From IMG/VR virus record IMGVR_UViG_3300036858_000014, positions 1-50,445 of that record: 50,445 bases of DNA; one strand, given 5' to 3'. Shown here piece after piece: positions 1 to 50,133 of the stretch. A program made the position numbers and the translations under genes. Origin of the DNA: a virus (taxonomy: Duplodnaviria > Caudoviricetes). The notes under the pieces were generated by a model that was given only the letters and a program-made list of their open reading frames with translations, was not told where the DNA came from and searched no databases. Every line of letters begins with the position of its first letter. Position 1 is the stretch's first letter.

Positions 1-127
1 CCCGCGCAACGGGGGCAGTACGGGCGCTGTAACCTGTCTGGAATTTGAGCAGCGGTACGTTTTTAGCGGCGATGATATGCGGGCGCGTACCCTGATCGAC
101 ATATGTCCAGATTTTTTTGTGTATCCC
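1..127. repeat. Terminal direct repeat, identical to 50319-50445 (circular assembly overlap)
   Basis: Exact 127-bp match at both ends, and an ORF reads in frame across the join. Confidence 0.95.
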
Positions 128-331
128 GGTCGGTTCTATACGGATAGTCTGTAACGTTCGCTGGCGGATTTTGACCGCCTTAAAGCGCGGTTTATGCGTC
201 CACTGCCTAACGACTTTTTCATGTTCGGCAAGTAACTCGTTAGCCGTGTCGTTTAGCGTAATCGCCATTTCACGGTCAGCAGCATTCTTTTGTTTGCGGA
301 TGATGCGGGCAAACTGTAGTTTGGTGGGCAT
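1..331 (-). CDS. 5' part of a HK97 gp10-like neck/tail-completion protein (167 aa) that spans the origin
   Basis: ATG at 331 (MPTKLQFARII...YVDQGTRPHII...). It continues through the circular join to TAG at 50146-50148; 504 nt in total. Confidence 0.75.
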   Translation of the reverse strand, partial: MPTKLQFARIIRKQKNAADREMAITLNDTANELLAEHEKVVRQWTHKPRFKAVKIRQRTLQTIRIEPTGIHKKIWTYVDQGTRPHIIAAKNVPLLKFQTGYSARTAPVAR

Positions 332-379: not shown

Positions 380-1036
380 TTAATCCCAGTCGTATTTTAA
401 ACTTATCAACTGGTTAATAAACGTAATCCTATCACGCGCAAGGTCTGTCCGCATGTTTACAGTGATGTCTCGAATGTAAATAGGATGATCTACTTTAACG
501 GGCTCTGTATATGTTTGAATTAGCGCCCGTTGAAATGCCCAATCCTCACCACCTATTTCAAAATCCGCATCATACCCCCCTGCGCTTATCCAACTCTGTT
601 TATGGAATAGCATTGTGGCTTGACATACATTCTTGCGTGTAACCATCCCCGGCGGTGGAGCTATAATCGTTTCGCCTTTTTCTATCCAATTACCGTATAT
701 CCACTTATCCTCTTGATACCCTTCATAGAGATATTTTATGCCGTCTGGTAGTAATTGGTCATCAGCATCTAATGGCACAATTAAATCCATTGCTGCCCGA
801 TGCACTCCTAAATTACGCGCATACACTACACCGCTATGAAACGGGAGTTCAATGTATTCAATATGGTGATGTTGTTTTGTAAAATGTGCGACGGTTTCAC
901 GGGTGTAATCATGAGAACAATCATCAATGATAAGGATTTGGGCTGCATTAGCGCTTAATGCACTATCAATAGCACGCCCTATCATACCTCCCATACAATA
1001 TGTCGGGATAATTACCGTTACTGGATAGGGTGTCAT
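380..1036 (-). CDS. Glycosyltransferase family 2
   Basis: VTVIIPTY, IIDDCSHD, ARNLG, LDADD, GGYD..EDW motifs. Start moved to 1036 because of the ATGA overlap with the upstream stop. Confidence 0.9.
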   Translation of the reverse strand: MTPYPVTVIIPTYCMGGMIGRAIDSALSANAAQILIIDDCSHDYTRETVAHFTKQHHHIEYIELPFHSGVVYARNLGVHRAAMDLIVPLDADDQLLPDGIKYLYEGYQEDKWIYGNWIEKGETIIAPPPGMVTRKNVCQATMLFHKQSWISAGGYDADFEIGGEDWAFQRALIQTYTEPVKVDHPIYIRDITVNMRTDLARDRITFINQLISLKYDWD

Positions 1037-2175
1037 AACTTGCCCCCCTGCCCTAATGCGGAATATTTGACTATCCGCCACGCTTCTATTTCCCCGCGCG
1101 TTATGCCAAGCGGATTACCCACGTCAGACGGTTGTAACAAATCGCGCGGCATAGGGTCACGGTCGGTCGTAAAGCGGTCAAGACGTTGATCCCACAAGTT
1201 GCACAACGTTTGCGATACCTTGCTATTGGCAAGGCGCGTAAGTGCCATCTCAAAACGATGATCTATAAAACCGTTTACCAGCGGATAGCCCGCCAGATAG
1301 TACACATCAACACTTTCGGGCGGATACTGCCAGTTAATCATATTGCAGTCGCACAAGCGCACTTGGAATATCCCTAACTGGCTGTCTACGCTGCGTATCG
1401 CGGCGGCGGTAGATGTGCTTGTGGCATTCCCTAGCCCGCAGTTTGAGCAGCTATAAGCGTTATCCTGTATCACAAAGGCCTGTGAAGTATCCGTATAGAC
1501 GCGGTACACGTCACAAGCAGTAATGAAATCGTTCGGGTTACTGGTATTCGCTGTGTTGATGGTTTCGTAGTTGTTGTTATCGTACAGATACGGTAGCTTC
1601 CAAATGGACGGCTGTACGCCTAGCGCCCGGTGAAAGCGTATCGTCGCGGTGTTACCTGACTTCGTAACCCGCGCGGGTTCGATTTGCCACTGCTCATTTG
1701 CCGCGCTCTCTGCCCCGTCTGCAACGCGAAAGAACGCCTGAATTTCAGCAGCGTCAACAGTGGTTGTAACCGTTACCGTTGCTAAGTCTAGAATACCATC
1801 CCCATCGCTATCAGAATACGCAACAGCAGCATCCGCTTGGATAACGGTTGTCGCGCGTTGACCGTAGGCTTGCACATATCCCCATTGGGTGCGTAATTTC
1901 TGAAGCTGGTAGGGGGAGGCGTTGTTAATTGGAATCCGTTCACCGACATACACCGGACGGGGGAAATAGCCTAAGTAGGTCGATAGCAGTTCCCACGCCT
2001 GATTAAGCGTACTGGTGATTTCGTCGCGCGGCGGTTGCGTGTAGACGGGTTTCCCGCCTTCTTTAAGGGGAACGCCCGCGCCCAACACCTGATTAAAGCG
2101 CCAAATGTTTTCACCCATGACCCGCTGCCACATGTTAAGGGTGTTATAGGTAGGAATATGAAATGAGACAGCCAT
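1033..2175 (-). CDS. Putative head-tail adaptor
   Basis: Lies between capsid and neck genes; A...LSTYLGYFP and VDVYYLAGY...MALTRLA patterns typical of adaptors. Confidence 0.55.
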   Translation of the reverse strand: MAVSFHIPTYNTLNMWQRVMGENIWRFNQVLGAGVPLKEGGKPVYTQPPRDEITSTLNQAWELLSTYLGYFPRPVYVGERIPINNASPYQLQKLRTQWGYVQAYGQRATTVIQADAAVAYSDSDGDGILDLATVTVTTTVDAAEIQAFFRVADGAESAANEQWQIEPARVTKSGNTATIRFHRALGVQPSIWKLPYLYDNNNYETINTANTSNPNDFITACDVYRVYTDTSQAFVIQDNAYSCSNCGLGNATSTSTAAAIRSVDSQLGIFQVRLCDCNMINWQYPPESVDVYYLAGYPLVNGFIDHRFEMALTRLANSKVSQTLCNLWDQRLDRFTTDRDPMPRDLLQPSDVGNPLGITRGEIEAWRIVKYSALGQGGKL

Positions 2176-2177
2176 AG

Positions 2178-4181
2178 TTACGCCTTAACCGCATTCGCTA
2201 ATGTGTCGTGTGGGTCAGTCATGACTTCCCGCCAGTTATGCCCTTCAGTGTATTGCAGATGTTCCCAGTCACGTACATCAATCACCATCTGACGACTTGC
2301 GGACGGGTTGTATACGTAGGGTGTATTCGACACCCTACCCATTACCCCGAACTGGTCAGTACGGCGGCCTGTATATTCAATCACGACACTACGCCGTATC
2401 GTCTTTTTGATGCTCGGCAGGATTTCGTGAATAAGCTCATAGACGCGCTGTTTAAAGGTGTGATGCTCTCTAACCCATGCCGCGCCCGCTTGTGCGATTG
2501 CAGCCCGCTTGACAGCGTTTTCAGGGGCAAGCCAGAAGCGCACCTTGTTTTGGAGATCAATGAAATCATCCCATGTCACATAATGGACGCCCGCTTGCAA
2601 GCCCGTGAGTTCATCAATATCCGTAACCACCTGATGCAAAAGTAACCCGCCGCCGCAAGCAAGGGTTTCAAAGAAACGGTTCGATACGAAGCCGCGATGT
2701 TCACGGTACTGGTTATCCCCGATTACAAGGGCAGCATTTGCCATCACGCCCCATGAACGCCTAAAGTCATAGGTGGTATCAAGTGCTTCGCGGCCTATCC
2801 TATCCCACATATCCCCATAGATACCGATGTTAATCCCCTCTTTTTCGAGGTCAATCAGGGCAAACCCTAAATCAGCGCGGGCTTGACTGTAACAACTGCC
2901 CATAAACACCGCATCATGCGCGGGCATGGTCGTATCAATAACGTCAGGTTGCTCATGCCCAATTTGCCAGTATGCAGCGGGTATCCCTAACTCCTGATAC
3001 TTGGGGAGCAAGTGCGGATTAACGACCAGCTGCAAGTCTATCTCGCGTAACAGTTGGGTAATCTCGCCCCTTGTGAGCGACCATTCCCACACATCCCCAT
3101 TCCAGTTTACCCAAACGGCGTTGGGGATACGCATCCGCAGCCGGACAAGCATCGGGGCTGTGACCACATCCGCGCCGTGAAACTGGCTGATAACCAAGTG
3201 CGGTTTAAAGTCCGCTAACGCCGTGCCTAAAATCGCTTCCAATTCATCATGCTTGACCGCAACTTGACGGTTATCTGAGTCGCCGTAGTACAGTCCTAAG
3301 TAATCAAACTGGTGAACAATAAACCGTTCCTGTAAGGCTTTTAGCAGCCCATTCTTTTGCGCCCGCGCGGTAGCATGGTGCTTGCCCGGTTCAAAGATGG
3401 GCAGGTAAAACACCCTTAATTGCATCGCGTCCTGATTATCAATCGCGGGGGATGGTTGCACTTGTGCGCCATTCGGGAAGAGTCGGTAAAACTCGTGACT
3501 GTCCCCATGTCCACCCGGAACGAACTCAGGACTTCCACCGTTGACTTGGCGTAAGGTATCTGCCGCAACATAATCATGGATCGTGCATCCCGAAACGGCG
3601 TCAACTGTATAACCCAACTCCCAAATATTGGAGGATAAAAGATTGTCACCCGCGTAAGTACGTGCTTTGAACGCTTGCTCTGCATACCCCCTCCACCAGT
3701 TAACCTTATCGCCTAACCACTTGCGAAACATCCCGACTTGCGCGTACACAATGCCCTTCTGTTCACCGTTGACGATACCCATTTGATAGGCCACATCATA
3801 CTTACCAGCGGGTTTATCGCGGTTGTCAGCAAATGCGACCGCGCCACATGTAGGGGTGTTTTCAAGGTGTACGAGGGCGCGTACAATACCGTTATCCATG
3901 AACTGAATATCGTCATTCGCAAGGATTACGTATTTCCCCTGCGCTGCATGGGCGCCTTCCGTAAAGGCATCGATTGCGCCTCTGAGTTCGCCGTGTTCGA
4001 TAAGGTGTAGATCAGGTTGCGACTTGCACCATTCAATTGTGCCGTCTGTACTGCCCCCGTCAACAATCACAAACTCATACGGAATACCGTCAGGGATGCG
4101 AACGCGGGCGCTGGTGAGCATTTGCTGTAACAGCGTTAGGCGGTTATATGTTCCAGAGACGATACTAATCAACGGTTGCAT
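2178..4181 (-). CDS. Fused GT2 plus GT-B (CgeB/Glyco_trans_1_2-like) glycosyltransferase with C-terminal extension
   Basis: N-terminal LISIVSGTYNR, IVDGGSTDGT, ANDD; C-terminal FVSNRFFETLACGG and EHHTFKQRV. GGAG RBS and TAATG overlap place the start at 4181. Confidence 0.88.
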   Translation of the reverse strand: MQPLISIVSGTYNRLTLLQQMLTSARVRIPDGIPYEFVIVDGGSTDGTIEWCKSQPDLHLIEHGELRGAIDAFTEGAHAAQGKYVILANDDIQFMDNGIVRALVHLENTPTCGAVAFADNRDKPAGKYDVAYQMGIVNGEQKGIVYAQVGMFRKWLGDKVNWWRGYAEQAFKARTYAGDNLLSSNIWELGYTVDAVSGCTIHDYVAADTLRQVNGGSPEFVPGGHGDSHEFYRLFPNGAQVQPSPAIDNQDAMQLRVFYLPIFEPGKHHATARAQKNGLLKALQERFIVHQFDYLGLYYGDSDNRQVAVKHDELEAILGTALADFKPHLVISQFHGADVVTAPMLVRLRMRIPNAVWVNWNGDVWEWSLTRGEITQLLREIDLQLVVNPHLLPKYQELGIPAAYWQIGHEQPDVIDTTMPAHDAVFMGSCYSQARADLGFALIDLEKEGINIGIYGDMWDRIGREALDTTYDFRRSWGVMANAALVIGDNQYREHRGFVSNRFFETLACGGGLLLHQVVTDIDELTGLQAGVHYVTWDDFIDLQNKVRFWLAPENAVKRAAIAQAGAAWVREHHTFKQRVYELIHEILPSIKKTIRRSVVIEYTGRRTDQFGVMGRVSNTPYVYNPSASRQMVIDVRDWEHLQYTEGHNWREVMTDPHDTLANAVKA

Positions 4182-4633
4182 TAGACCGTCTCCGGTAGCG
4201 GGTTTAAAAACATTTCCCAAGACAAGAGATATACCCTGTCCATATCCTCAATGCTCATAGATGTGCTACCTATACCGTCATAACGATAAAACTTACACGC
4301 CCTCACAAACTCATCAGCGTTCAATCCCAGTAACGCACATGCCGCAATCTCGCAAAAATTTAGCAAGGATTGGCGGGTAGTGGAGATATAATCTTCTAGC
4401 GGTATGTACATCATCAGTAACACGCTGGCGGGCAAGGCCGCCCCTCTATCGCACATCCCGGCGGTGGCGTAATGCACGGCGACGGGGTTGGGCGTATCGG
4501 ATAGGTGCAAGCGGGTAGCAGAATGAGAACCGTGATAACGAAGGCGCGTAGGGTTGCTTTGTTCATTTCGCTGTTGTCTTTCGCTTACGTGTCGCTTTCG
4601 GTTTCGTATCGACTGCAATCCCCTTTGCTGCAA
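4181..4633 (-). CDS. Hypothetical protein (true start probably further downstream)
   Basis: ORF fills the gap in the operon and its stop overlaps the next start. Confidence 0.4.
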   Translation of the reverse strand: MQQRGLQSIRNRKRHVSERQQRNEQSNPTRLRYHGSHSATRLHLSDTPNPVAVHYATAGMCDRGAALPASVLLMMYIPLEDYISTTRQSLLNFCEIAACALLGLNADEFVRACKFYRYDGIGSTSMSIEDMDRVYLLSWEMFLNPLPETV

Positions 4634-5318
4634 TCTTACGCGGGGCAGTATCTACCGCAACGGGCGCTTGATGTATCTTGTTCGGTTGTGTAATCAATAG
4701 TCCGCAATCGCTCGGTTCAATGAGGTACGTTTCGTATTCAATCCCGGCGGCATCATACCCCGCAACAACCCGTTCACCGACGATAGGGTGCAAGGCATCA
4801 TGGGCAACCAGTACACCGCCTGTAATCAACACACGTGGCGCTTCTAAGCCTATCGCTTCGCACGTCACCTCATCATGCCACAAATCCTCAAAGAGCAAAT
4901 GTACGCTGTCGTCGGGTAGACTCTTAAGGTATTCCAGAGCATCGGTATGCACAGGGGTAATGTACGCGCGTAAGTCGTCAGGGATATAACTACCGCTAGA
5001 CTCTTGCGTATCAACGGTAATAACCCGCCCCGCGCCGCCGCGCTTGTGGCAAGCCAGCGCCATATGTGCTGCTGATGCACCGTACTGCGTACCAAGTTCT
5101 ACAATGTTACCTGTCACCTCAAGCGCCCGGACAAGGGCGTAAAGTACCTGTCCCTCCACGCCAAAGAGTGAGCCGATAGGGAACATGCCGCGCCCGTTAT
5201 CCCATCCGGTAAAATAATCTTCACGGGCGTAAGCGATTAGCGCGGCGGCGTCAAGGTCAAGCTGTTTCGCAATCGCGATTAGGGCTTGTTCAAGATTCAT
5301 GCTTTGCTGTGTTGTCAT
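4563..5318 (-). CDS. Class I SAM-dependent (O-)methyltransferase, Methyltransf_24-like
   Basis: IVELGTQYGAS, VITVD, LLFEDLWH, GGVLVAHD motifs; basic low-complexity tail. Confidence 0.85.
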   Translation of the reverse strand: MTTQQSMNLEQALIAIAKQLDLDAAALIAYAREDYFTGWDNGRGMFPIGSLFGVEGQVLYALVRALEVTGNIVELGTQYGASAAHMALACHKRGGAGRVITVDTQESSGSYIPDDLRAYITPVHTDALEYLKSLPDDSVHLLFEDLWHDEVTCEAIGLEAPRVLITGGVLVAHDALHPIVGERVVAGYDAAGIEYETYLIEPSDCGLLITQPNKIHQAPVAVDTAPRKIAAKGIAVDTKPKATRKRKTTAK

Positions 5319-6094
5319 TCAATAACATCCTTCCCCCAATACGGATGATCTTGCATCCAATCCGGCAGGTAGTCGCGCGGGTCAACGGGTTCAGGATTCC
5401 AAAACCGCTTGCTTACCGGATGAACATCAACAACCTCATTATGCTCATACTTGCTCATGAAATCAGGGCGCAATTCGGACTGATGCCCATGTCCACCTGC
5501 CCACTTGTACCGCTGATATTCAACCGGAACGGCATAACCGAAGTGGCAAATATGGCGCTTTTCACCCGTTTCACCACGCGGGATATACGACTGCCCTATG
5601 CGTTGATAGAACTCATTCGAGGCTTTTGGGTAGGTAATGCGCTGCGGCATCTGTCCATCGTTCACAATCGCGCGGTTGAATGAGCGCCAAAAGTGGACAA
5701 ATGGTACAAGCCAATGCCGCCGTCCTTCCCGCATCGCAACGTCATAATTCTGGAACGCGAGTTGCGCCAGCGCCGGATTCCACACCTCATCACTATCGAC
5801 ACTTAAGATTATGTCGGCATCGGGTGCAAACGTGTAAATGGCGTCCCGGTGTTCGCCCTCTAATCGCCAGTCGCCTTGCACCCACCGCAGTTTATCCCCC
5901 GCCGCTTGACGGGCTATCGCGTACAATTCACGCGGGTTGTCAGGACATGGCACAGCCGTTTGCTGATTACCGTTGTGCGAGGGGCGCTCGGCGTACAGAA
6001 TATGAAACTCATCTACAGCGTACAGCAGTGACCGAATAGCGGCGGCAAGATAGGGTTTACCGTAATGCAGCGGCATGAAAGCGATGGTTTTCAT
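5315..6094 (-). CDS. Putative GT-A fold glycosyltransferase
   Basis: YLAAAIRS, EGEHRD, ILSVDSDEVW (DxD), ICHFGYA. Start at 6094 (ATGA overlap). Confidence 0.7.
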   Translation of the reverse strand: MKTIAFMPLHYGKPYLAAAIRSLLYAVDEFHILYAERPSHNGNQQTAVPCPDNPRELYAIARQAAGDKLRWVQGDWRLEGEHRDAIYTFAPDADIILSVDSDEVWNPALAQLAFQNYDVAMREGRRHWLVPFVHFWRSFNRAIVNDGQMPQRITYPKASNEFYQRIGQSYIPRGETGEKRHICHFGYAVPVEYQRYKWAGGHGHQSELRPDFMSKYEHNEVVDVHPVSKRFWNPEPVDPRDYLPDWMQDHPYWGKDVIE

Positions 6095-6252
6095 GCCGAT
6101 TTGCGCCAACTGCTAATAAAGGGCATCATCAAAGCCCCGCCAAAAGCAGCAAATCCTGTTATTGTAGGGTTAGCGCCACTACTGTATATCGCTGCTAAAA
6201 CAACAATGCCCACGATAAACATGATAATATTTGCTATCGTTTTTGCTGTCAT
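6091..6252 (-). CDS. Small two-TM membrane protein
   Basis: MTAKTIANIIMFIVGIVVLAAIY...; GGGGGA RBS; overlaps both neighbours. Confidence 0.6.
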   Translation of the reverse strand: MTAKTIANIIMFIVGIVVLAAIYSSGANPTITGFAAFGGALMMPFISSWRKSA

Positions 6253-6665
6253 CATTCCCCCTGTTTTGCTGTCAAAATATCCACAATCTCGCCTAGCCAA
6301 CTTACTTGCTCTCGTAACGCCTGTATCTGCATACAGAAGTCGGGTGATTTTGTCGCCAGTTCCACAGCCCACTCGTTGAGTAGGTCATAGTAGAATGCCG
6401 CATGTACGATGATTGACTTGCGCGTCGGGTTGTCGTTGAGCATCGCTAATGTGCTATCGTGCGCTGCTACCGTCTTGCCGACAATCTCGCCCTTGCGTAA
6501 TTCACTCATTACCAGCGCCATGTTCGCAGTCGTTTGCAAAGTGATAAGCATCGGTTTTAGGATGCGGAAGGGTACGCGGTTAAGTGGCATATTAGATGTC
6601 ATAGGCATTCCAGACTTCGACATGTTGCCCGTATAGTACGCTGTCTGGATTGTTGTTGTGAACAA
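6252..6665 (-). CDS. Hypothetical protein
   Basis: ORF in operon; start uncertain. Confidence 0.5.
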   Translation of the reverse strand: MFTTTIQTAYYTGNMSKSGMPMTSNMPLNRVPFRILKPMLITLQTTANMALVMSELRKGEIVGKTVAAHDSTLAMLNDNPTRKSIIVHAAFYYDLLNEWAVELATKSPDFCMQIQALREQVSWLGEIVDILTAKQGE

Positions 6666-6861
6666 GCATAGATAAACCGCAGGCTAAATCAGCGCGAACT
6701 AAAGGCGCTAAAAAATGGTCAAAATTGAGTAATGATTCAAAACACTGATAGGCTTTATACCATTCCGCAAACTCAAAACGCCGTACAATAGCGCGAATGA
6801 TTCGCCGCTGCTGCATAGCGTTAATAGCTTTTACGGTGTGCTTGTTTTCGTATTCCACCAT
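6592..6861 (-). CDS. Hypothetical protein
   Basis: ORF abuts the upstream stop codon. Confidence 0.5.
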   Translation of the reverse strand: MVEYENKHTVKAINAMQQRRIIRAIVRRFEFAEWYKAYQCFESLLNFDHFLAPLVRADLACGLSMLVHNNNPDSVLYGQHVEVWNAYDI

Positions 6862-7629
6862 CTATAACGCCCCCTCTACCCAACTGCGAAACGGTTTCTC
6901 AATGCATAAAAACTCATACAGCGCCGCGCCATAACTACTCACATCCATATCCCGCGCTTTCAGTAGCCCATCGGGTAGCTGGTTATACGTACCGCGCATA
7001 AAGTGGTGCTGTCCAAACGGGCTAGGGTCTACCATTGACTCAGCATACAGCGGCATTCGATACGCGGCGGCTATCGCCCATCGTAACGGCGCAATCGTGG
7101 CAACGTTATCATGCTGGTGAATGTGAAGCATAATCCGCGCACTCAGCAAAGCATTGTGGCGGTTATCACCCCATGTATTCCCCGCGACGTTAACATGTAA
7201 GCCGCGCTCATGTAGGTTTTGCAGCATGTTACCGCGCCGCCATGCTTGGCTGTAGCCTAAGAAAATCGCGTCATGTTGCCATGACACCGCGCCGCCGGGG
7301 TTCAAACCGGGATGGCTGCCTAACGGTACAAACCGCGCGCCGATTTTCCGCGCGTGCCATGCGTCAGAAGTCCACTTTTCAGCAACACCGGGCGGGCATG
7401 GGTCGGACGCTGCCTCCCATTCCAACTGCCACCAAATCAGTCGTGCTTGTGCTTGTGACCAGTCGCCCCATTCGCCGTTACGCGGGGCTATCACATAGCA
7501 TTTGCTAGGGTCGTGAATGTCCATTTCGTCAATGTAACAAACGGGATACCCTGACAACTCCGCAAGGCGAAAGAAATCATTGTACGGGTCGTATTGGTAG
7601 CGTGTGCGAACGAATGTAACGTCAGTCAT
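6862..7629 (-). CDS. Putative GT-B fold glycosyltransferase
   Basis: VPLGSHP, DAIFLGY..RR, WGDNR..LLSARIMLHIHQ, PLRW..AAY..P..AE resemble a GT-B nucleotide-sugar binding domain. Confidence 0.65.
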   Translation of the reverse strand: MTDVTFVRTRYQYDPYNDFFRLAELSGYPVCYIDEMDIHDPSKCYVIAPRNGEWGDWSQAQARLIWWQLEWEAASDPCPPGVAEKWTSDAWHARKIGARFVPLGSHPGLNPGGAVSWQHDAIFLGYSQAWRRGNMLQNLHERGLHVNVAGNTWGDNRHNALLSARIMLHIHQHDNVATIAPLRWAIAAAYRMPLYAESMVDPSPFGQHHFMRGTYNQLPDGLLKARDMDVSSYGAALYEFLCIEKPFRSWVEGAL

Positions 7630-7792
7630 TTTTACGAGAAAATAAAAGCATAAAACTGCCTATTGATAATGCAGCACATAGCCATAAAAGGAACTTATCG
7701 AAATGGATACTTGTCGATATATTAACTGATGCCCACCATGCCCACAGACTGAGTATAATAAGTACAAGCACGCCTATAACTATGTTCCTCAC
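7622..7792 (-). CDS. Small membrane protein (56 aa, not in the ORF track)
   Basis: GTG start overlaps the upstream TGA; MRNIVIGVLVLIILSLWAWW...FLLWLCAALSIGSFMLLFSRKND. Confidence 0.55.
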   Translation of the reverse strand: MRNIVIGVLVLIILSLWAWWASVNISTSIHFDKFLLWLCAALSIGSFMLLFSRKND

Positions 7793-7992
7793 ACTTCCCC
7801 CTCGTACTCTTGCCGTAGCGTGCGCGTCTTGGTATCAGCTACCAAGTGATACCGCGCCCCCGGCGGTAATGCGTTCCACGTTTCAGCGTTGACGCCTAAG
7901 ATAACAAATGTGTCATCATCTACGGCGGGCGCTTCCGGTTCATCCGGTTCACCGCTTAGGCTGTTGAGATAATCCTTTTCGTTCGGTGTCAT
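7789..7992 (-). CDS. Hypothetical protein
   Basis: Purine-rich RBS; coupled to neighbours. Confidence 0.6.
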   Translation of the reverse strand: MTPNEKDYLNSLSGEPDEPEAPAVDDDTFVILGVNAETWNALPPGARYHLVADTKTRTLRQEYEGEV

Positions 7993-8121
7993 CTACCCTC
8001 TCCCCCACTTCTTACTTGCCAGCATCCGAAACATGCCCGCTAGGAATAGCGATACACCGACTACACCTGTTACGCAGCCAAGCGAGTACGCGCCTAGGAG
8101 TGCAACTGTGTTACTGTCCAT
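7993..8121 (-). CDS. Small single-TM protein (42 aa, not in the ORF track)
   Basis: MDSNTVALLGAYSLGCVTGVVGVSLFLAGMFRMLASKKWGRG fills the gap exactly. Confidence 0.5.
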   Translation of the reverse strand: MDSNTVALLGAYSLGCVTGVVGVSLFLAGMFRMLASKKWGRG

Positions 8122-8380
8122 AATCCCATCCTGTGTACTTGTGCGCTAACATCGCTAACCCCGCTGATGCAATCGTTGCGACCACATCCAAGCGGGTTAC
8201 AGCTATCGACAACACGACGGATACCCAAAACGCCGTACAGACAATACACTCAAGCAGCTTTAAGCCTACCCGCTGGTCAAGGTTGCGCAGGTGTATGAAC
8301 ATGCCAAAAAGCCCGTGCGTTTTCGTGAGCGCGTGGGCAAGATACCATGTAGCGAGTGCTTGTGTAACGAGGATTTCCAA
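8111..8380 (-). CDS. DUF1360-like membrane protein
   Basis: GLF..F..LR and LLECIVCTAFWVS (CxxC..W) plus hydrophobic segments. Confidence 0.6.
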   Translation of the reverse strand: MEILVTQALATWYLAHALTKTHGLFGMFIHLRNLDQRVGLKLLECIVCTAFWVSVVLSIAVTRLDVVATIASAGLAMLAHKYTGWDYGQ

Positions 8381-8384
8381 CGGG

Positions 8385-9287
8385 TTATGCTGTCCGTTTT
8401 TGTGCTGTCTGCGCTAATTGTAACACAGTATCCAAATCAGGCGCAATAGGCGCGGTCGGTGACAGCGGTTTCCACAAATTAGGCTTGGCTTCGTAGTCAC
8501 GCTTATCAACCCACAGTGTAGCACCATGCCCAACGCGCGGGTACTTTTTGCCGCTGATTAAACCGACCTCGTGACGCGGCGGATACAGCGCTTGCACCTC
8601 GATAGCCCCTTCAAAGTAGGTATTGGCTATTTGTCCGGTCGCTACGGTAGAACTTCCACAGCACATGTCAGCATATCTCCCATACTTGGCTTGTAAACGG
8701 TCGTAATGATTGCGAACAAAGGTTTCTTGATGAGGGTTCTTTTGGTGATTGGTCGCACTTGCGCCTAAATGTATTCGGTAGTTGACCAGCGGTTTTGCAA
8801 CCCGCTTGACGCGTAACCCGGCAAGGTGGAGACGGATATACAAGTCCTCATCTTCCCCGCCGCGCATGGTTTCATCAAATCCCCCGACAGCTTCAAAAGC
8901 CAACCGGGGGAGTAACGTTGTGATGATGTGCGCCATACCGTCTCGAATGATATGAAACCCTTCGTTTGCATAGCGCACAGTATCGCCTACTTGCCAGTCT
9001 GTGTACACATACCGATTACCGCCCCCACTCGCCAGCCATGCCCCTACCGTTTCGTCAAGAAACCCCGGCGCTAATGTATCGTCAGCGTCAAGGAATACGA
9101 TAAACGGCGCGGTTGATTGTGCAACCCCTGTATTCCGCGCCCATGCCGCGCCTTGTTCACGGCTGTCGTAAACGACTTGCACGTCAACCGAATAGGTTTG
9201 GTTACAGGCGCTGGCGATTGCATCGTCAACGACCGCATAATGATGCGGCGCGACGGGAATGATAATGCTGGCGAGTGAGCTGGGCAT
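8385..9287 (-). CDS. Glycosyltransferase family 2 with C-terminal extension
   Basis: ASIIIP, GAAWARNTG, IVFLDADD, VGGFDE..GGEDEDL; an extra domain begins at MCCG. Confidence 0.9.
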   Translation of the reverse strand: MPSSLASIIIPVAPHHYAVVDDAIASACNQTYSVDVQVVYDSREQGAAWARNTGVAQSTAPFIVFLDADDTLAPGFLDETVGAWLASGGGNRYVYTDWQVGDTVRYANEGFHIIRDGMAHIITTLLPRLAFEAVGGFDETMRGGEDEDLYIRLHLAGLRVKRVAKPLVNYRIHLGASATNHQKNPHQETFVRNHYDRLQAKYGRYADMCCGSSTVATGQIANTYFEGAIEVQALYPPRHEVGLISGKKYPRVGHGATLWVDKRDYEAKPNLWKPLSPTAPIAPDLDTVLQLAQTAQKRTA

Positions 9288-9291
9288 CGGT

Positions 9292-10779
9292 TTAGCTTAC
9301 GGGCTGATAGGCGTTTGGTGAATAGTACGGGCCGTTGGCATTGAAGTAGCGCCCGCCGTTAAGGTGATAGGCGGCATCTGGATACGGATCACGCCCATAC
9401 AGGAATCCCGGCAGCGAGTAGTTCACGTTGTCAATACGCGCGGCTAACCAAGGCGTGCGCATAATCAGACGCGGGCGGGCGGCGATATAGGCTTCGACGC
9501 ACATCCCCGTTTGCCGATGGGTCATAGCATAAAACCCGCCGTTCATCGTGCGATAGGCCAGTGGGTTATAGACATCACGAAACTCTTGGATGTCTGAGTT
9601 TTCCAAATCAAACCCTTCAAGATAGGTGACTTGACGCCCCATTGCGGTTAGCGGAATGAAGTAGATAGATGAGCTAAAGCCCTGCCCTAGCGTGGTCTGT
9701 TCAATCGCGCGGGTTGTCACAACGGGCAAGCGCATACCGTTCACCCATAGGAAGTTACCCGTTCGCATTTCATCACGCATCTGTACCTGCATATCAGCCG
9801 ATACGTTCAAGCGTTCGCCGTCATTGTTTGTCACCGCACAGCCATTGGTTAAATAGCTGCAAGGCCAAATGCTGGTCAGTTTCCAGAACAAGTCAGGATG
9901 CATCGCCAGTACCCAATTCACGGGTGCAATGTTGCTGTCATCCGCCAGCGCAATCAATTGGTACATGATACCTGCGACAATATCAGTGATACTACCGCTT
10001 TGCACCGTACCTCCGACATCGGCATTACCCCAATTAAAAATGGTAGACCGTGCAGCCGCGCAAGTGTTGCCTTCCACGTCAACAACCGTATTGGTAATCA
10101 AACGGTCAAAACCGTTAAATTCCCGAATGAACCCCAACTCGGCATTGTTACCTGTGTTCGCAGTTGACCCGTGAAACAAGGTACGCATCAACACGCGGCT
10201 CATGTGTACACCCAAGCTAAACAGCGCCAAGCCAAGCGTGGTGTTTGGGTTTTGCGCCCGCTGCAATACGTCAGGAATCAGCGGAAACAAGTCGGGACGG
10301 TTCACCAGATTGCGATTCACATCGCTGTTGTTAATCCGCCCGCCTGTTTTTGCAAGGTTCGCTTGGCGTACCTTAATGAAGAAATCGGCAAACGTCGCGC
10401 GGGTAGTACACAGTTTGACCTCCCCCGCCGTCGGTGCATCACCGCAGTAATCGGTAGCATTCGTACCGCTGCCTGCCTTGACACCGCTGATAATGTCGTA
10501 TTCAGGGTTGTCAATGTTGGTTACGCCGCGATACAGTGCCGACAAAAACTGTCCTGCGGTCGGCATAACAAACGCGGCGAACATGTCCGCATCCGCGCCG
10601 GGGCGGGTGAACAAGCCGGGTACGTTCTGGTTTTGAAAGAACCCATGCGGTACTTGGATGTTCGGGCTTGGTGACAACACATCGTGCTTTTGGCCTACGT
10701 TGAGCATCCCGGCGTCGAGGAGCTTTTGGTACGCCTCAACCGGGATTTCAACACCGTCAATTTTGATTACATCACTCAT
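9292..10779 (-). CDS. Major capsid protein
   Basis: 495 aa directly after protease/scaffold; strong AGGAG RBS; EFNGFDRLI and SSIYFIP segments typical of HK97-fold capsids. Confidence 0.75.
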   Translation of the reverse strand: MSDVIKIDGVEIPVEAYQKLLDAGMLNVGQKHDVLSPSPNIQVPHGFFQNQNVPGLFTRPGADADMFAAFVMPTAGQFLSALYRGVTNIDNPEYDIISGVKAGSGTNATDYCGDAPTAGEVKLCTTRATFADFFIKVRQANLAKTGGRINNSDVNRNLVNRPDLFPLIPDVLQRAQNPNTTLGLALFSLGVHMSRVLMRTLFHGSTANTGNNAELGFIREFNGFDRLITNTVVDVEGNTCAAARSTIFNWGNADVGGTVQSGSITDIVAGIMYQLIALADDSNIAPVNWVLAMHPDLFWKLTSIWPCSYLTNGCAVTNNDGERLNVSADMQVQMRDEMRTGNFLWVNGMRLPVVTTRAIEQTTLGQGFSSSIYFIPLTAMGRQVTYLEGFDLENSDIQEFRDVYNPLAYRTMNGGFYAMTHRQTGMCVEAYIAARPRLIMRTPWLAARIDNVNYSLPGFLYGRDPYPDAAYHLNGGRYFNANGPYYSPNAYQPVS

Positions 10780-14477: not shown

Positions 14478-15803
14478 TTAATACCGTAGATGCCATGTGA
14501 GATAACGCAATGCATCGAGGCAGTGGTCATCTACTTTAAGCGGTTTAGGTTCACCAATAGAGGCTTGCGTACCGGGATTGTAACGATAGCTTTGAAATTC
14601 ACGTATCAGGTTAACGCAACGCGGATGGATTTTAAGCTGTCTTACACCGTTGCCATCGCATACCAAACGACGTAGGTTTTTGATGCCTTCAGATACGGTA
14701 TGCGTTGCACCCGTCGCATTTAACCCCATTGACCATAGCCGTGCTTTTAATTCCGCCGCGCTGCTATCCACATAAGCGAGGGTTGGGTGCTGATACGGAA
14801 GCGCCATTACGTTTTGCACGCTGGCATCGGTGAGTTCGTTTGTAACCACGTATTCATAGAACACATTAACACCGCCCGTTGGGGTAATATTTGCCAACAA
14901 AAATACGCGCGGGTGATAACTCTCTGTACCAACGCCCTGTCCTGCGCTATACCCATCGTCAACACCCCACTCTATAGGCCAGTCGGGATTATATTCCGCG
15001 TCGGCAGTGACGTTATGCTCAACACTGAAGTTGTCATAAATCACGCCTTCCGCTTGCACCCAACGGCCTAACACAAGACGCTCATATTGCATCCCGGTTA
15101 ACCGTTCAAGGTTTGCAAGGTATTCGGGCGGGTTATGCGGGTTGTCTTTCGCGCTACTGTAGTAAACCGATGCTTCCCTGCCGATGATCAAACGCTGGTT
15201 AATCCAGTGCAAGGGGCTATCAGGATTTGTCATGAGAATGATTTGCCGATATTCGCCCACAGGGGAGCGCATACGGGCAATAATTTCGTTATAGTCTTGC
15301 TCGGTGAACGCGGTCGCTTCCTCAAACAGACAGATGCTTAACCCGCCATCCCCGCCGATAGACCGCACGCTTTCGCGCTGATCATCGTCATTCATCCCAC
15401 CCCAATACAGCGTACCCCCGTTGGCATACGCAAACTGGCGGTCAGATTTCTTCTTTTCGGCGATTGCGGTGTTACGCTTCATCACCGACTGCCACATAAA
15501 CGGGACAATCGACTTGCCCGCCCATTCCTGCGCTTTACGCATCATAAGACCCGTTGCGCCGGGGTAGCGTTGCATATAGCGGTTGACCAGTTCCAAGCCA
15601 AGGCGCGACTTACCGCCCCCTGCCGACCCTGTTAGCAGAATAACAGGCGAACGATCCTCAAGCGCGGGTAGCTGCCACGCGAGAGGGGTATAACCGTCAT
15701 TCGGTACTGTTGGTATTGCCGTTAAGTTGGTGCTGATGTGTTGCACCAACGAGTCGAACAAAGTCAGCTTGGATTGCGCTAAGTGCGCTGCTGTCTGATA
15801 CAT
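14478..15803 (-). CDS. terL: Terminase large subunit (PBSX/SPP1-like)
   Basis: Walker A GSAGGGKS, Walker B LFEEA, MTNP, DNPH, GVDDGY, DHCLDALRY. Start uncertain. Confidence 0.93.
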   Translation of the reverse strand: MYQTAAHLAQSKLTLFDSLVQHISTNLTAIPTVPNDGYTPLAWQLPALEDRSPVILLTGSAGGGKSRLGLELVNRYMQRYPGATGLMMRKAQEWAGKSIVPFMWQSVMKRNTAIAEKKKSDRQFAYANGGTLYWGGMNDDDQRESVRSIGGDGGLSICLFEEATAFTEQDYNEIIARMRSPVGEYRQIILMTNPDSPLHWINQRLIIGREASVYYSSAKDNPHNPPEYLANLERLTGMQYERLVLGRWVQAEGVIYDNFSVEHNVTADAEYNPDWPIEWGVDDGYSAGQGVGTESYHPRVFLLANITPTGGVNVFYEYVVTNELTDASVQNVMALPYQHPTLAYVDSSAAELKARLWSMGLNATGATHTVSEGIKNLRRLVCDGNGVRQLKIHPRCVNLIREFQSYRYNPGTQASIGEPKPLKVDDHCLDALRYLTWHLRY

Positions 15804-24243: not shown

Positions 24244-24260
24244 ATATGTCCTTTCGATTA

Positions 24261-24328
24261 TACGTTTATGGGTCATAAACTACGTTTACGCCCGTTTATA
24301 TTATCGGTCAATATGGCTGATTTGTCAA
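24261..24328 (-). promoter_or_regulatory. par operon promoter with parC-like repeats
   Basis: TTGACA-N17-GATAAT (24328-24300); CGTTTA at 24263, 24283, 24293 and an inverted TAAAC at 24276. Confidence 0.6.
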
Positions 24329-48543: not shown

Positions 48544-50133
48544 TTAGATACCCGGTTCAAGCTTCCCGATAAAGGCGTAAGTCTCGTGAACTTCGCCGCC
48601 CGTGAGTGCAAAGTTGATGTTCGGTGTTGGGGCGATACTGTTAATCCCAAAGTTACCGGGGCTGGTATATCCCCCGATGACTTCCCACTGCCCACCGCCG
48701 CCTGATACGTCGCGCAACACACGGCTGTTACCGTTGCTGTTGGTCTGTACCATCCATAACATCGTACCTTTATAGCCTGCAAATTTCAAATCTGCCACTG
48801 AACCACTGCCCGAATCGGCAAATGTCACCAGTTCAAATAGCGGCAAACTCCCGCTTAAACGGAAGTTGTCTTTCAACGTGCGGTAGACCAGCCCGGTCGC
48901 AGTGCCAATGTAGGCATCACCCGGTACGCCCGGACGCATCGCAACCACGTTGAAATTCGCAGTCACCGCCGCGCCACCGACCGCAGTCCGCACCGTGACA
49001 AGGGTTAGCGTTTGGGTTGCGCCGTTGTCACGAATGAGTACCGCCGCGCCACTTGCACCAACTGCCATCCCGGTTGTTTTATCGCTAAAGCTGATGCTGT
49101 TAAGGGTCTGAGTTGTCAGCCCGCCAGACGAAAGTGCCGTCCAAGACAACCCCGCGTCAGTCGATTTGTAGATATACCCGTTGGCAGCGCAAGCGTAAAC
49201 CGTCTGACTATCGGTTGCGAACAAGGCGCGCGGGTAATTCGGGGCTGTAAAGCCAGTGGTTGACAAGCTCCAAGGATTAACCGCCCCCGTCTGAATATCC
49301 TCAAATGCAGCGTAAGCTACACCTGCTGTCGGCAGTGCGACCAGCGCGGTTTCACGTCCGTTAAGGTTCACCCGTACCACGTCCAAAGCGTCAGCATTCG
49401 GCGCGGCGTTGATGTAGTTACCGCTTACGGTTGTTGTCCAATTTGTACCGCCGTCTTCAGTGAACAGAAAACGGGCGGTTGCAATCGATTGATAACCCGG
49501 TGTGCTGTCGCGGTCGGTCACTGCCCAAAAGCGCCGTGTGCCATCGCTTTCGCTCCCGAAACAATCGCCCACACATTTCACGCTGTCAACATTAATCACC
49601 TTATTGATAGCGAAGTCGGATACTGTACCGGATAAGTCAGCATGGCGCAGTTTCATCCATGTACTTAACGTGGGTGAAAAGGTTGTATCAAACGTCCGCA
49701 TGATGTCATCAACCGCACCGCCGCCCTCTGCAAACTTTGCAATGGGGTTATCGAACGCGGTACTAGTCACGTTGCCATCATCGTATTCAAGCCCAACGTT
49801 ATAGTTGAGGATGCTCAAATTACCACAGCGCTGTAAAACCACAAGGTCAAATGGACAGTTGCCAATGGCGTTTTGCAGATACATACGCGGTAAATCAGGG
49901 CGGATTGATATTGTTGTTGTAAACGGCGCGGGGTCGCCTGATTTGAACGCGCCTAAATAGACGGTATTTCCAAACGCGTCTAACCCAAAGCGCTGCTCAA
50001 CATCCGCCGCGCCGCCTGTTGGCCCGTCTACAGCTGCGCCGTCTTGGTCAAATACGCGCCACTTATTTCCCGGCCCACCGGGGCGAATGAAAGTAGCGGT
50101 AAACTCCCGTGCATTTTGAAATGGAACACTCAT
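48544..50133 (-). CDS. Major tail (tube) protein fused to an Asp-box beta-propeller
   Basis: Position before the chaperones; AGGAG RBS; TEDGGTNW, STDAGLSW, DVSGGGGQW boxes. Confidence 0.65.
   Translation of the reverse strand: MSVPFQNAREFTATFIRPGGPGNKWRVFDQDGAAVDGPTGGAADVEQRFGLDAFGNTVYLGAFKSGDPAPFTTTISIRPDLPRMYLQNAIGNCPFDLVVLQRCGNLSILNYNVGLEYDDGNVTSTAFDNPIAKFAEGGGAVDDIMRTFDTTFSPTLSTWMKLRHADLSGTVSDFAINKVINVDSVKCVGDCFGSESDGTRRFWAVTDRDSTPGYQSIATARFLFTEDGGTNWTTTVSGNYINAAPNADALDVVRVNLNGRETALVALPTAGVAYAAFEDIQTGAVNPWSLSTTGFTAPNYPRALFATDSQTVYACAANGYIYKSTDAGLSWTALSSGGLTTQTLNSISFSDKTTGMAVGASGAAVLIRDNGATQTLTLVTVRTAVGGAAVTANFNVVAMRPGVPGDAYIGTATGLVYRTLKDNFRLSGSLPLFELVTFADSGSGSVADLKFAGYKGTMLWMVQTNSNGNSRVLRDVSGGGGQWEVIGGYTSPGNFGINSIAPTPNINFALTGGEVHETYAFIGKLEPGI

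Follow-up and report, generated by a model that had tools for sequence, protein, structure and literature searches.

What does a phage gain from a block of sugar-transferring enzymes set between its capsid gene and its tail genes? The window analysed here (50,445 nt) is the whole genome of an uncultured phage, complete at 50 kb with a 127-bp terminal repeat. Between its capsid gene and its tail genes lies an island of six enzyme genes with seven catalytic domains, all on one strand and straddling the head-tail adaptor gene. In a limited literature search, we found reports of phage virion glycosylation only for a few mycobacteriophages, in which it altered antibody recognition. We give roughly even chances that this island encodes late, cytoplasmic glycosylation of virion proteins. 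The acceptor we infer from gene position and enzyme solubility, and the late timing and the glycan are presumed.

Layout of the locus

The genes of the island (380-9287) all lie on the minus strand, and the features of the locus are as follows.

1..331, minus strand: p167, ORF crossing the terminal repeat and continuing at 50146-50318 (translation across the repeat)
380..1081, minus strand: GT233, GT2 glycosyltransferase downstream of the adaptor (Pfam Glycos_transf_2, 76.3 bits)
1033..2175, minus strand: p380, 380 aa, predicted head-tail adaptor with inserted beta domains (AF2 pLDDT 80.4; VIA-align)
2178..4220, minus strand: GT680, GT2 domain, Glyco_trans_1_2 domain and C-terminal 'CCG-family' domain (Pfam)
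4181..4633, minus strand: p150, doubtful ORF overlapping the end of MT251 (no matches; a shorter version of ~76 aa is possible)
4563..5318, minus strand: MT251, class I SAM-dependent methyltransferase (Methyltransf_24, Pfam 55.2 bits)
5315..6109 (likely start 6094), minus strand: p264, 264 aa, member of a large Pfam-less phage family (motif, hhalign)
6252..6861, minus strand: two ORFs of 89 aa and 137 aa, coding status uncertain (no matches, no relatives in 80 loci)
6862..7629, minus strand: p255, 255 aa, probable Glyco_trans_1_2-type (GT-B-like) transferase (predicted-structure likeness)
7622..7992, minus strand: two short ORFs, one of 67 aa and one of 56 aa in which the hydrophobicity scan marks two hydrophobic segments; no family matches and no homologues in 80 loci
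8111..8380, minus strand: p89tm, small membrane protein (weak DUF1360 match, E 0.0018, below the Pfam cut-off)
8385..9287, minus strand: GT300, GT2 glycosyltransferase with C-terminal 'CCG' domain (Pfam Glycos_transf_2, 42.6 bits)
9292..10779, minus strand: major capsid protein with an HK97 fold (495 aa), bordering the island on its upstream side (AF2, Foldseek)
48544..50133, minus strand: p529, in the major-tail-protein position, an N-terminal part followed by a Ycf48-like BNR beta-propeller (PDB profile search)

The first-pass annotation had described a co-oriented, tightly packed cluster that starts 4 nt after the capsid stop and straddles the adaptor between the capsid and neck genes, and both the coordinates and the sequence confirmed this arrangement, with the adaptor fold predicted for p380 (1033-2175). 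Specifically, the capsid stop TAA is followed after 4 nt by the ATG of GT300, and the remaining junctions are overlaps or short gaps; GT680, with a likely start at 4181, ends 2 nt ahead of the adaptor gene, and GT233, with a likely start at 1036, shares an ATGA overlap with the adaptor stop. Since GT300 shows no ribosome-binding site of its own and follows at 4-nt spacing, it is probably translationally coupled, with a yield below that of the capsid protein. Promoter and terminator scans of the locus gave chance-level results only.

The capsid protein has no Pfam or PHROG match. Its AF2 model (pLDDT 83.3) returned 316 Foldseek matches in the PDB at E <= 0.001, whose listed entries belong to shells of capsids or encapsulins (best E 3.3e-10), and nearly every named match in BFVD is a capsid protein (best E 2e-13), so that the HK97 capsid proposed at first reading is borne out by the model and its structural neighbours. 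The protein has 152 homologues, with a Pfam domain in none of the 120 listed, and the lineage gave no tblastn match in 50,697 phage records and no GenBank phage match.

For p380, the best VIA-align match was the GTA virion chain 6tba_2A (Z 9.0, 177 aligned, rmsd 4.2), followed by neck chains of phages 812, DT57C, Mycofy1, Milano and Mu (Z 6.7-5.1), and HK97 gp6 scored Z 4.2; by the tool's own warning, Z values under 8 may reflect a common arrangement. Foldseek gave no match at E <= 0.001. With GTA virion and phage neck chains as its top six VIA-align matches, the predicted fold supports the adaptor identity given earlier, and we assign p380 with moderate confidence as a head-tail adaptor (HK97 gp6 / SPP1 gp15 / YqbG-like). 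Directly after p380, in 17/17 loci, comes p529, which matched Ycf48 at E 2e-13 in the PDB profile search and Pfam PSII_BNR at E 1.9e-5 (under the cut-off). p529 is in turn followed by a tape measure protein (PHROG 1272). The ORF p167 lies after the adaptor in this genome, versus upstream of the capsid gene in 32/32 relatives' loci.

Enzymes of the island

We scanned 50 window ORFs, mostly those above about 100 aa, with Pfam at E <= 0.01-0.1. Six glycosyltransferase domains had been proposed, of which four pass the curated Pfam cut-offs, whereas the 255-aa and 264-aa proteins have no curated-model support. All three GT2 domains exceed the gathering cut-off of 23.3 for Glycos_transf_2 (PF00535, GT-A fold). 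In GT680, this domain covers residues 19-152 (63.7 bits), and residues 459-596 match Glyco_trans_1_2 (PF13524, CgeB/YkvP-like, a GT-B-type half) at 51.2 bits against a cut-off of 25. A DxD-type acidic motif following the nucleotide-binding strands defines the GT2 family catalytically, and each GT2 domain has one, DADD in GT300 and GT233 and NDD in GT680 (D103 and D104 invariant), two of them at invariant family-alignment columns. GT300 also ends in a conserved IAPD peptide.

The two remaining candidates are p255 and p264. p255 has no sequence match in Pfam, PHROG, NCBIfam or the PDB. The ESM Atlas has a model for the identical protein, and it reaches TM 0.80-0.85 to clusters carrying Glyco_trans_1_2, with PF13524 present in 12-99% of the members of such clusters, and the protein weakly resembles the C-terminal half of GT680 (BLASTP E 4e-4, hhalign E 0.036). 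On this structural likeness it is probably a Glyco_trans_1_2-type (GT-B-like) transferase; homologues occur in 5 of 80 related loci. Its Atlas neighbours include Nucleocytoviricota clusters named 'glycosyltransferase family protein'. p264 had no PF00535 match in the Pfam scan. Among its 720 homologues, a Pfam domain occurs in none of the 120 listed and the source name 'glycosyltransferase' in one of these 120. The family has invariant residues D100/D102/E103 in a D-S-D-E motif, which hhalign aligned onto the GT2-domain DADD (E 0.0065), and PF00535 is present in 10-23% of the members of its Atlas feature neighbours. We treat these as leads that p264 is probably a GT-A-like transferase, and this 720-member Pfam-less family merits structural attention.

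The SAM methyltransferase noted earlier was recovered above the Pfam cut-off as Methyltransf_24. MT251 also matched RMNT_CmcI at E 0.0097, under the Pfam cut-off, and from its family and this sub-threshold match it is presumably a sugar O-methyltransferase; related methyltransferases occur in 24 of 80 related loci. As first annotated, nucleotide-sugar synthesis genes are absent from the 50 scanned ORFs.

Such a set of enzymes might instead hypermodify the phage DNA with sugars (5hmC/5hmU-type), the methyltransferase taking part in the base-modification route. Pyle et al. (10.1101/2023.12.21.572611) describe glycosylation of 5hmC by GT-A and GT-B enzymes that are relatives of LPS and teichoic-acid enzymes, and some of these clusters adjoin phage structural genes. 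However, the scan of 50 ORFs, mostly above ~100 aa, detected no domain of the 5mYOX/TET, thymidylate-synthase-like or DNA cytosine methyltransferase type. MT251 has its weak match to a rhamnosyl-O-methyltransferase, and Methyltransf_24 is, to our knowledge, not a DNA methyltransferase family. The aminotransferases, acetyltransferases and sulfotransferases of related islands (among the 25 of 53 families listed) suggest elaborate glycans, and we consider DNA hypermodification very improbable.

The labels attached to the GT2 domains point to another target. PHROG assigns GT233 and GT680 to 'GtrB-like O-antigen conversion' (E 5.1e-8 and 3.1e-5), in matches that span the GT2 core only. The NCBIfam matches of GT233 are generic and every one far under cut-off, and the nearest named models, TuaG, PglI, WcaA and EpsD, are all far under cut-off as well; these are envelope-polysaccharide transferases that act on lipid-linked glycans. 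The island could accordingly alter a glycan of the host envelope (O-antigen, capsule, teichoic-acid-like polymer, or S-layer or flagellar glycan) through host-started and host-exported lipid-linked intermediates, for example to block superinfection or to keep progeny off lysed cells. The survey of relatives bears on this reading.

A variable island at a fixed site

The lineage numbers at least 119 contigs in IMG/VR, with more than 150 homologues of the capsid protein, and we surveyed 80 related IMG/VR contigs with the capsid locus, whose capsid proteins range down to 28% identity with that of the window. The contigs are binned in MAGs of conflicting phyla. The synteny survey that the first-pass annotation had proposed showed that the GT2 island recurs at a fixed site: the capsid gene is followed by GT2 genes in 48/51 loci with >= 8 kb of downstream sequence and by GT2 ORFs in 59/70 loci with >= 2 kb, and 29/32 islands closed by a p89tm, adaptor or p529 marker contain GT2. 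Across the 80 loci, 118 GT2 ORFs were counted in 612 kb downstream and 0 in 690 kb upstream, all on the capsid strand, so this position relative to the capsid gene is not due to chance. Since 3/32 closed islands have no GT2, these enzymes are dispensable for building the particle.

The content of the island varies greatly, and its length ranges from 0.6 to 9.3 kb. Among 69 otherwise unlabelled ORFs of the relatives' islands, Pfam found at least 14 Epimerase, at least 11 Polysacc_synt_2, at least 4 DegT, at least 2 Hexapep and at least 2 sulfotransferase domains (25 of 53 families listed). Unlike the window genome, many relatives thus encode sugar-nucleotide enzymes within the island. Proteins of ~900 aa in these islands have the order GT4+GT2+GT2 in 30/30 scanned. 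A variable sugar-enzyme island at a fixed position beside the capsid gene is therefore a feature of the whole lineage, and it is a new finding.

The survey also offers points to both sides of envelope remodelling. Hypervariable islands resemble surface-glycan loci, and the small membrane protein p89tm is conserved, occurring in or beside the island in 39/80 related loci (local HMM) and immediately preceding the adaptor in 23/25 loci. However, a hydrophobicity scan found no hydrophobic segment in any window transferase, and polytopic membrane proteins (4 or more hydrophobic segments) number 0/528 among island ORFs. For this reason the pathway looks cytoplasmic, and flippase, polymerase, ligase, GtrC and WecA-type initiator are all missing from the islands. 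The Pfam scan of 50 window ORFs detected no integrase, and known Gtr cassettes sit by the attachment site, not within a head-neck junction. In relatives down to 28% capsid identity, the GT2 ORFs lie downstream of the capsid gene only, a position more in keeping with a virion-linked role than with a moron. Taken together, we regard remodelling of the host envelope as unlikely.

A C-terminal domain shared by several transferases

GT300, GT680 and the ~900-aa transferases end in a domain of ~80 aa, here called 'CCG', which has not been described before. The family of the GT300 C-terminus (A12) aligned with family A10 in hhalign (probability 91.5, E 8.7e-7), and the C-terminal residues of GT680 matched the HMM of the large-transferase C-termini at 18.2 bits (E 4.3e-7 for 3 targets). 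In this domain, Tyr and Asp residues are invariant and a Cys pair is nearly so, and several copies are followed by long tails that are rich in Pro/Ala/Thr/Glu or basic. In two GT-less loci, L059 and L079, it is a free-standing protein encoded directly behind the capsid protein; most of the other loci have transferase domains fused N-terminally to it.

This architecture, together with the invariant residues and the tails, would also suit a quite different role, in which the 'CCG' domain or its carrier is itself the acceptor, a decoration or assembly protein that glycosylates itself or carries glycan and to which transferase domains were added in evolution. That idea is built on architecture, and the domain has no PDB sequence match; we consider it improbable.

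A proposed model of virion glycosylation

If the island glycosylates virion proteins, its soluble transferases would assemble a short hetero-oligosaccharide with nucleotide sugars of the host as donors, using the three GT2 domains, the one or two domains of Glyco_trans_1_2 type and probably one further GT-A enzyme, and MT251 would then add methyl groups to this glycan. One or more virion proteins would serve as acceptor, foremost the capsid protein and then possibly the tail protein or the adaptor insert, and we infer that the 'CCG' domain of GT300 and GT680 may dock the enzymes on the acceptor or on an assembly intermediate.

In favour of this model are the enzyme families, the HK97 capsid and adaptor on the flanks, the lineage-wide position, the lack of polytopic proteins among the island ORFs, the sugar-nucleotide enzymes of related islands, the lack of DNA-base-modification partners among the 50 scanned ORFs, the shared 'CCG' domain and the Corndog precedent. 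Counting against it are the GT2-free 3/32 closed islands, the lack of meaningful similarity to the Corndog enzymes and the two of six proposed glycosyltransferase domains that curated models do not establish. In addition, the membrane protein p89tm is unexplained by purely cytoplasmic protein glycosylation, and the nearest named NCBIfam models, far below cut-off, point to lipid-linked-glycan enzymes; soluble GT2 enzymes are able to use host-made undecaprenyl-linked intermediates. As a tentative extension, which we hold to be rather doubtful, the locus may specify a self-contained, hypervariable 'glycan coat' from its fixed site between capsid and adaptor genes, its enzymes tethered to the assembling particle by the 'CCG' domain. 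Virion glycosylation would then be ancestral and lineage-wide, outside the actinobacteriophages, and selection on the particle surface would have produced the diversity of methylated, aminated, acetylated and sulfated sugars.

If the model is true, a whole environmental phage lineage puts varied glycans on its particles, and particle glycosylation would be a general phage strategy, not a mycobacteriophage oddity. The islands would also be a source of compact, soluble multi-domain transferases, including the GT4+GT2+GT2 enzyme, and the 'CCG' domain would be a candidate substrate-targeting domain.

Comparison with known systems

The phage virion glycosylation systems named for comparison are those of Che8, Corndog and Myrna. 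In Corndog (Cluster O mycobacteriophages), gp35-gp38 comprise an O-methyltransferase and three transferases inside the virion structural operon, and these enzymes are described as detected in infected cells, not in virions (PMC4351075). Capsid and tail tube proteins are their reported targets (PMC11600133, PMC12363180, citing Freeman 2023). The published accounts name Corndog gp38 and Che8 gp110 as transferases essential in virion glycosylation. Like Corndog, the window has a methyltransferase and several co-oriented transferases embedded among head genes. Unlike Corndog, with its four enzymes, the window has six enzyme genes and seven catalytic domains, and the earlier remark that it carries more enzymes than usual therefore holds against this cassette, the sole one compared (PMC4351075). 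The capsid lineages are unrelated (no tblastn match in 50,697 phage records), and the window-type island shows hypervariability within a large lineage of uncultured phages. When gp35-gp38 were compared with all window proteins by BLASTP, gp38 and gp35 had no match at E <= 1, and the best pair was gp37 with GT300 (28% over 143 aa, E 3.4e-4). In Che8 (Cluster F1) and its relatives, capsid proteins reportedly carry the products of phage transferases (PMC11256854, PMC12363180). The window and Che8 share the phage origin of their transferases. Virion glycosylation has been demonstrated by experiment in Che8, and Maravista, a phage of the Che8 type, has its transferase genes near the right genome end, not at the head-neck junction (PMC11256854). 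Under the proposed model, the island would be analogous to the Corndog and Che8 systems; by BLASTP it has no meaningful homology to the Corndog cassette.

The fold of chlorovirus and giant-virus capsids differs from the HK97-fold capsid here. Chloroviruses and other giant viruses (PMC5408694, PMC9614988) likewise use virus-borne transferases for capsid glycosylation instead of the host machinery, and relatives of the window phage add sugar-nucleotide enzymes of their own; the giant viruses differ in having eukaryotic hosts and scattered genes. The Gtr cassettes of temperate phages share the GT2 catalytic core, with GT233 and GT680 labelled 'GtrB-like'. A Gtr O-antigen cassette consists of a GtrA-type flippase, a membrane-anchored GtrB and a polytopic GtrC, whereas the window has no GtrA-like or GtrC-like membrane proteins, no hydrophobic segments in its transferases and no integrase among the 50 Pfam-scanned ORFs, and its island lies among assembly genes. 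Phage DNA sugar-hypermodification clusters, which combine a methyltransferase and 5mYOX, or ThyS, with glycosyltransferases, have envelope-related GT-A and GT-B enzymes, sometimes beside structural genes (10.1101/2023.12.21.572611), but 5mYOX, ThyS and DNA cytosine methyltransferase were not detected in the 50 scanned ORFs of the window. Finally, in the cytoplasmic O-glycosylation of flagellin by FlmG, a soluble transferase is described as needing a separate module to recognise its structural-protein substrate (PMC7591256), and this module offers a possible analogy for the 'CCG' domain.

Genome context of the island

The window covers the entire record, and its first 127 bases recur at the end as an exact direct terminal repeat (1-127 = 50319-50445); we therefore regard the record as a phage genome that is complete, at about 50,318 bp. 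No tRNA genes were found in it. Going down from about 33.4 kb, across the origin and on to about 40.5 kb, the long ORFs lie nearly all on the minus strand, and this block carries the assembly genes in the following order.

Assembly genes and island genes of the window
14478-15803, minus-strand block, large terminase (PHROG 2, E 3.3e-35; Pfam Terminase_3)
Portal position, 695-aa protein, putative portal with a weak Phage_Mu_F match as its sole lead
Next two genes, 104-aa and 427-aa proteins
9292-10779, 495-aa protein, HK97-fold capsid protein
380-9287 (-), the island, with the eight genes that follow
8385-9287 (-), GT300, transferase
8111-8380 (-), p89tm, small membrane protein
6862-7629 (-), p255, uncertain transferase
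5315-6109 (-), p264, uncertain transferase
4563-5318 (-), methyltransferase
2178-4220 (-), GT680, transferase
1033-2175 (-), p380, head-tail adaptor
380-1081 (-), GT233, transferase
331 down to 1, resuming at 50318-50146, a single 167-aa ORF that spans the genome ends across the terminal repeat
48544-50133 (-), p529, 529-aa protein in the major-tail-protein position
Next, two small ORFs
45154-47715, tape measure protein (PHROG 1272)

The first-pass annotation had described a tightly packed enzyme cluster between the capsid and neck genes, and this observation is essentially right. The capsid stop is followed after 4 nt by the ATG of GT300, 2 nt separate the end of GT680 from the adaptor gene, and GT233, read from its first Met, overlaps the adaptor stop by ATGA. 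The adaptor p380 shows a head-tail-adaptor fold with inserted beta domains; its best match was a GTA virion chain (Z 9.0), with five phage neck chains next. Foldseek returned no match for p380, and single-sequence and profile searches of p380 against PDB sequences gave nothing usable; the same was true of the 695-aa protein against PDB sequences. At its C-terminus, p529 carries a BNR/Asp-box beta-propeller of the Ycf48 type (E 2e-13 in a PDB profile search; Pfam PSII_BNR scored below its cut-off), a putative and unusual tail decoration. Scans for promoters and terminators performed at chance: promoter-like sites numbered 20 (expectation 20.0) and terminator-like sites 23 (expectation 17.0).

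The Pfam scan of the window covered 50 ORFs. Besides the assembly and island genes, it identified a ParM/actin-like protein (23212-24276, minus strand; MreB-like_C, 30.2 bits), a double-HTH regulator of the XRE type (20035-20559, minus strand), Rad52, DUF3223 and a Toprim-like match below cut-off, while PHROGs added a replication initiation O-like protein. No integrase was found among the 50 scanned ORFs. From these gene assignments, the phage may persist as a plasmid.

Enzymes encoded in the island

Above curated cut-offs, Pfam assigned GT2 domains to GT300, GT233 and the N-terminal part of GT680, Glyco_trans_1_2 to the C-terminal part of GT680, and Methyltransf_24 to the gene at 4563-5318. 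The GT2 domains carry DxD-type motifs, either DADD or NDD. NCBIfam gave the island proteins generic GT2 matches alone, far below cut-offs. Six glycosyltransferase domains had been claimed for the cluster; four of them are confirmed by Pfam, and the two in p255 and p264 are not fully established. For the ORFs of 67, 56, 89, 137 and 150 aa in the cluster, no relatives were found in the 80 related loci described below, so their coding status is uncertain.

The protein p255 matched no profile in Pfam, PHROG or NCBIfam. The ESM Atlas model of its exact sequence aligned at TM 0.80-0.85 to clusters with Glyco_trans_1_2, including a YkvP-like cluster in which 99% of the members carry this domain. Its sequence links to GT680 are weak, with hhalign against the GT680 family giving E 0.036. 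Searches of p255 and p264 against PDB sequences, both single-sequence and profile, yielded nothing usable.

The p264 family comprises at least 720 proteins of about 250 aa, which are about 40-50% identical and mostly lie on phage-sized contigs. No Pfam domain was found in the 120 homologues listed, and the family invariants are H-G-H and D-x-D-E. For a GT-A reading of p264 there are leads only: PF00535 occurs in 10-23% of the members of its Atlas neighbours, its DSDE aligns on the DADD of the GT2 domain in the big transferases of related loci (hhalign E 0.0065; E 0.037 against GT680), and one homologue among those listed bears a source name, glycosyltransferase. Separately, a match of p264 to CroV588 (PDB 6nyr, E 3.6e-11) was rejected as an artefact in which 13 very weak matches had been summed, all from one 45-residue stretch of p264 against an FNIP-type repeat protein.

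A position-fixed island across the lineage

The capsid protein had 152 homologues, 42 of which were used to build an alignment. None of the 120 homologues listed carries a Pfam domain, and the closest relatives listed, on contigs of 45.7 and 44.8 kb, have capsid proteins 75% and 72% identical to this one. Scanning IMG/VR with the single capsid sequence recovered no relative, whereas the alignment-based scan recovered 119 related stretches, and the best 80 of these served as loci. Their ORFs were labelled with local, non-curated HMMs seeded from the window proteins and iterated twice.

Behind the capsid gene, GT2 ORFs occur in 59 of the 70 loci with at least 2 kb downstream, in 54/60 with at least 5 kb and in 48/51 with at least 8 kb; where a downstream marker gene closes the island (32 cases), they are present in 29. 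The same loci provide a control: the 690 kb upstream of the capsid genes hold no GT2 ORF, and the 612 kb downstream hold 118, every one (118/118) on the capsid strand. The usual order is capsid, variable island, p89tm, adaptor and p529, and the island ranges from 0.6 to 9.3 kb. Directly before the adaptor stands p89tm (23/25 loci), and directly after it p529 (17/17). The membrane protein p89tm has a weak DUF1360 match and occurs in 39 of the 80 related loci, even in ones without transferases; all the explanations considered leave it unaccounted for.

At the island end, 31 loci encode a long ORF, about 750-1,100 aa in length and usually about 900 aa. Thirty of these big transferases were scanned, L033 being left out as a duplicate of L032, and all 30 matched Glycos_transf_1, Glyco_trans_1_4 and Glycos_transf_2; the one displayed in full has two GT2 stretches. 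This trifunctional layout is seen in L027:13078-15834 and 29 similar ORFs: a GT4-type GT-B domain, two GT2 domains and then a C-terminal domain.

A census of sugar enzymes drew on the 32 closed islands, where 69 ORFs of 100 aa or more carried no other label. Among the first 25 of 53 families listed were 14 NAD-dependent epimerase/dehydratase, 11 Polysacc_synt_2 and 4 DegT aminotransferase matches, together with 2 hexapeptide transferases, 2 sulfotransferases and several methyltransferases. The earlier statement that nucleotide-sugar genes are missing thus holds for this genome but fails for the lineage, as relatives' islands carry epimerase, Polysacc_synt_2 and DegT genes.

One relative, L009, keeps the window set in order (GT300, p89tm, p255, p264, methyltransferase, GT680, adaptor), and parts of the set also occur in L019, L028 and L049. 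Among the surveyed loci, only the window has two genes, GT233 and the 167-aa ORF, inserted between the adaptor and p529. The latter sits upstream of the capsid gene in 32/32 relatives, between the portal-position and 427-aa genes. Judged from gene order, the neck region of this genome is rearranged, and the GT2 gene at 380-1081 came along.

Outside IMG/VR, tblastn of the capsid, p255 and p264 proteins against 50,697 GenBank phage records gave no match, and GT680 gave a 95-residue GT2-core match alone, in two uncultured 735-kb records. Scanning genome contigs recovered 7 loci. Every one falls in a MAG bin, and the bins disagree in phylum, with the labels Methylobacillus, Proteobacteria, Gemmatimonadetes, Chloroflexi/Chloroflexota, Thermoflexales and 'uncultured bacterium'. 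Two loci (L082 and L087) are near-identical in the scan: their match statistics agree, and their contigs, 83.7 and 83.3 kb long, are binned as Proteobacteria and Gemmatimonadetes. The lineage's phage contigs have probably been mis-binned, and the MAG labels therefore yield no host.

A C-terminal domain shared by the transferases

An undescribed domain of about 80 residues closes the big transferases; it runs, in order, through a Cys pair (C-C-G), a linker and the motifs 'V-x-l-E-Y-x-G', 'G-x-(S/T)-G-R-x-Y' and 'V-x-x-x-D'.

Copies of the C-terminal domain
8385-8702 (-), window, end of GT300
2181-2414 (-), window, end of GT680
L059:8557-9117
L079:8221-8550

An HMM of the big-transferase ends matched the GT680 C-terminus at 18.2 bits (E 4.3e-7, 3 targets). 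A diverged copy closes GT300 and its relatives (profile-profile probability 91.5, E 8.7e-7, 82 columns); this link comes from profile-profile comparison only, since the match of an HMM from the same source to the GT300 C-terminus was not significant (E 0.13, 3 targets). After the GT300-type copy come a variable linker and, at the very end, a conserved 'I-A-P-D' peptide.

Across the loci, the domain HMM matched 38 ORFs (40 matched stretches), 30 of which are big transferases. The other carriers are three GT2 proteins of about 370 aa, encoded immediately behind the capsid gene, and five proteins of 76-302 aa with no detected transferase domain. Two of these five, in L059 and L079 (186 and 109 aa), are the sole labelled genes between the capsid gene and p89tm, and these islands are transferase-free. 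The L059 domain is preceded by an apparent lipoprotein signal (…LFAC). A search for longer domain-bearing proteins returned 5, all transferases, one being the window's own and matching by construction; against PDB sequences the domain had no match.

Because it stands alone in islands lacking transferases and is common to several transferases, the domain looks like the conserved core of the locus, to which transferase domains have been fused N-terminally. Its putative role would be to bring the enzymes to their acceptor. Complex prediction for the capsid protein with the GT300 C-terminal domain scored 0.00, which gives no verdict and is neutral on binding.

Candidate acceptors of the putative glycan

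Flippases, polymerases, ligases, oligosaccharyltransferases, GtrC-type enzymes and WecA-type initiators are all polytopic. Hydrophobic segments were called in a crude scan with a 19-residue window at a mean Kyte-Doolittle value of at least 1.6, a conservative setting under which p89tm scores as one segment. The scan found no such segment in the window transferases, and none of the 528 ORFs downstream of relatives' capsid genes had four or more, so all these polytopic classes are absent from every island.

The main molecular rival is that the enzymes glycosylate DNA, as in the clusters of Pyle et al. Those clusters are defined by partners missing from the window: among the 50 Pfam-scanned window ORFs there was no 5mYOX/TET, thymidylate-synthase-like or DNA cytosine methyltransferase domain. 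A soluble cytoplasmic pathway encoded between capsid and neck genes would fit virion-protein acceptors best. Glycosylation of the virion, which the first-pass annotation had proposed, is the best available interpretation, to which we give an even chance.

Comparison with known systems

In mycobacteriophage Corndog, the enzyme proteins were found in infected cells and not in virions, and the authors suggested capsid modification (PMC4351075). [quoted passage not shown] 2023). The window cassette resembles that of Corndog in its workings on paper but is non-homologous: Corndog gp35 and gp38 matched no window protein at E <= 1, and gp37 matched GT300 at E 3.4e-4. Neither the lineage nor the capsid-adaptor island is described in the open-access papers searched. 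New here are an island that is fixed in position, hypervariable and lineage-wide, a trifunctional transferase, sugar-nucleotide genes in the relatives, and a shared C-terminal domain.
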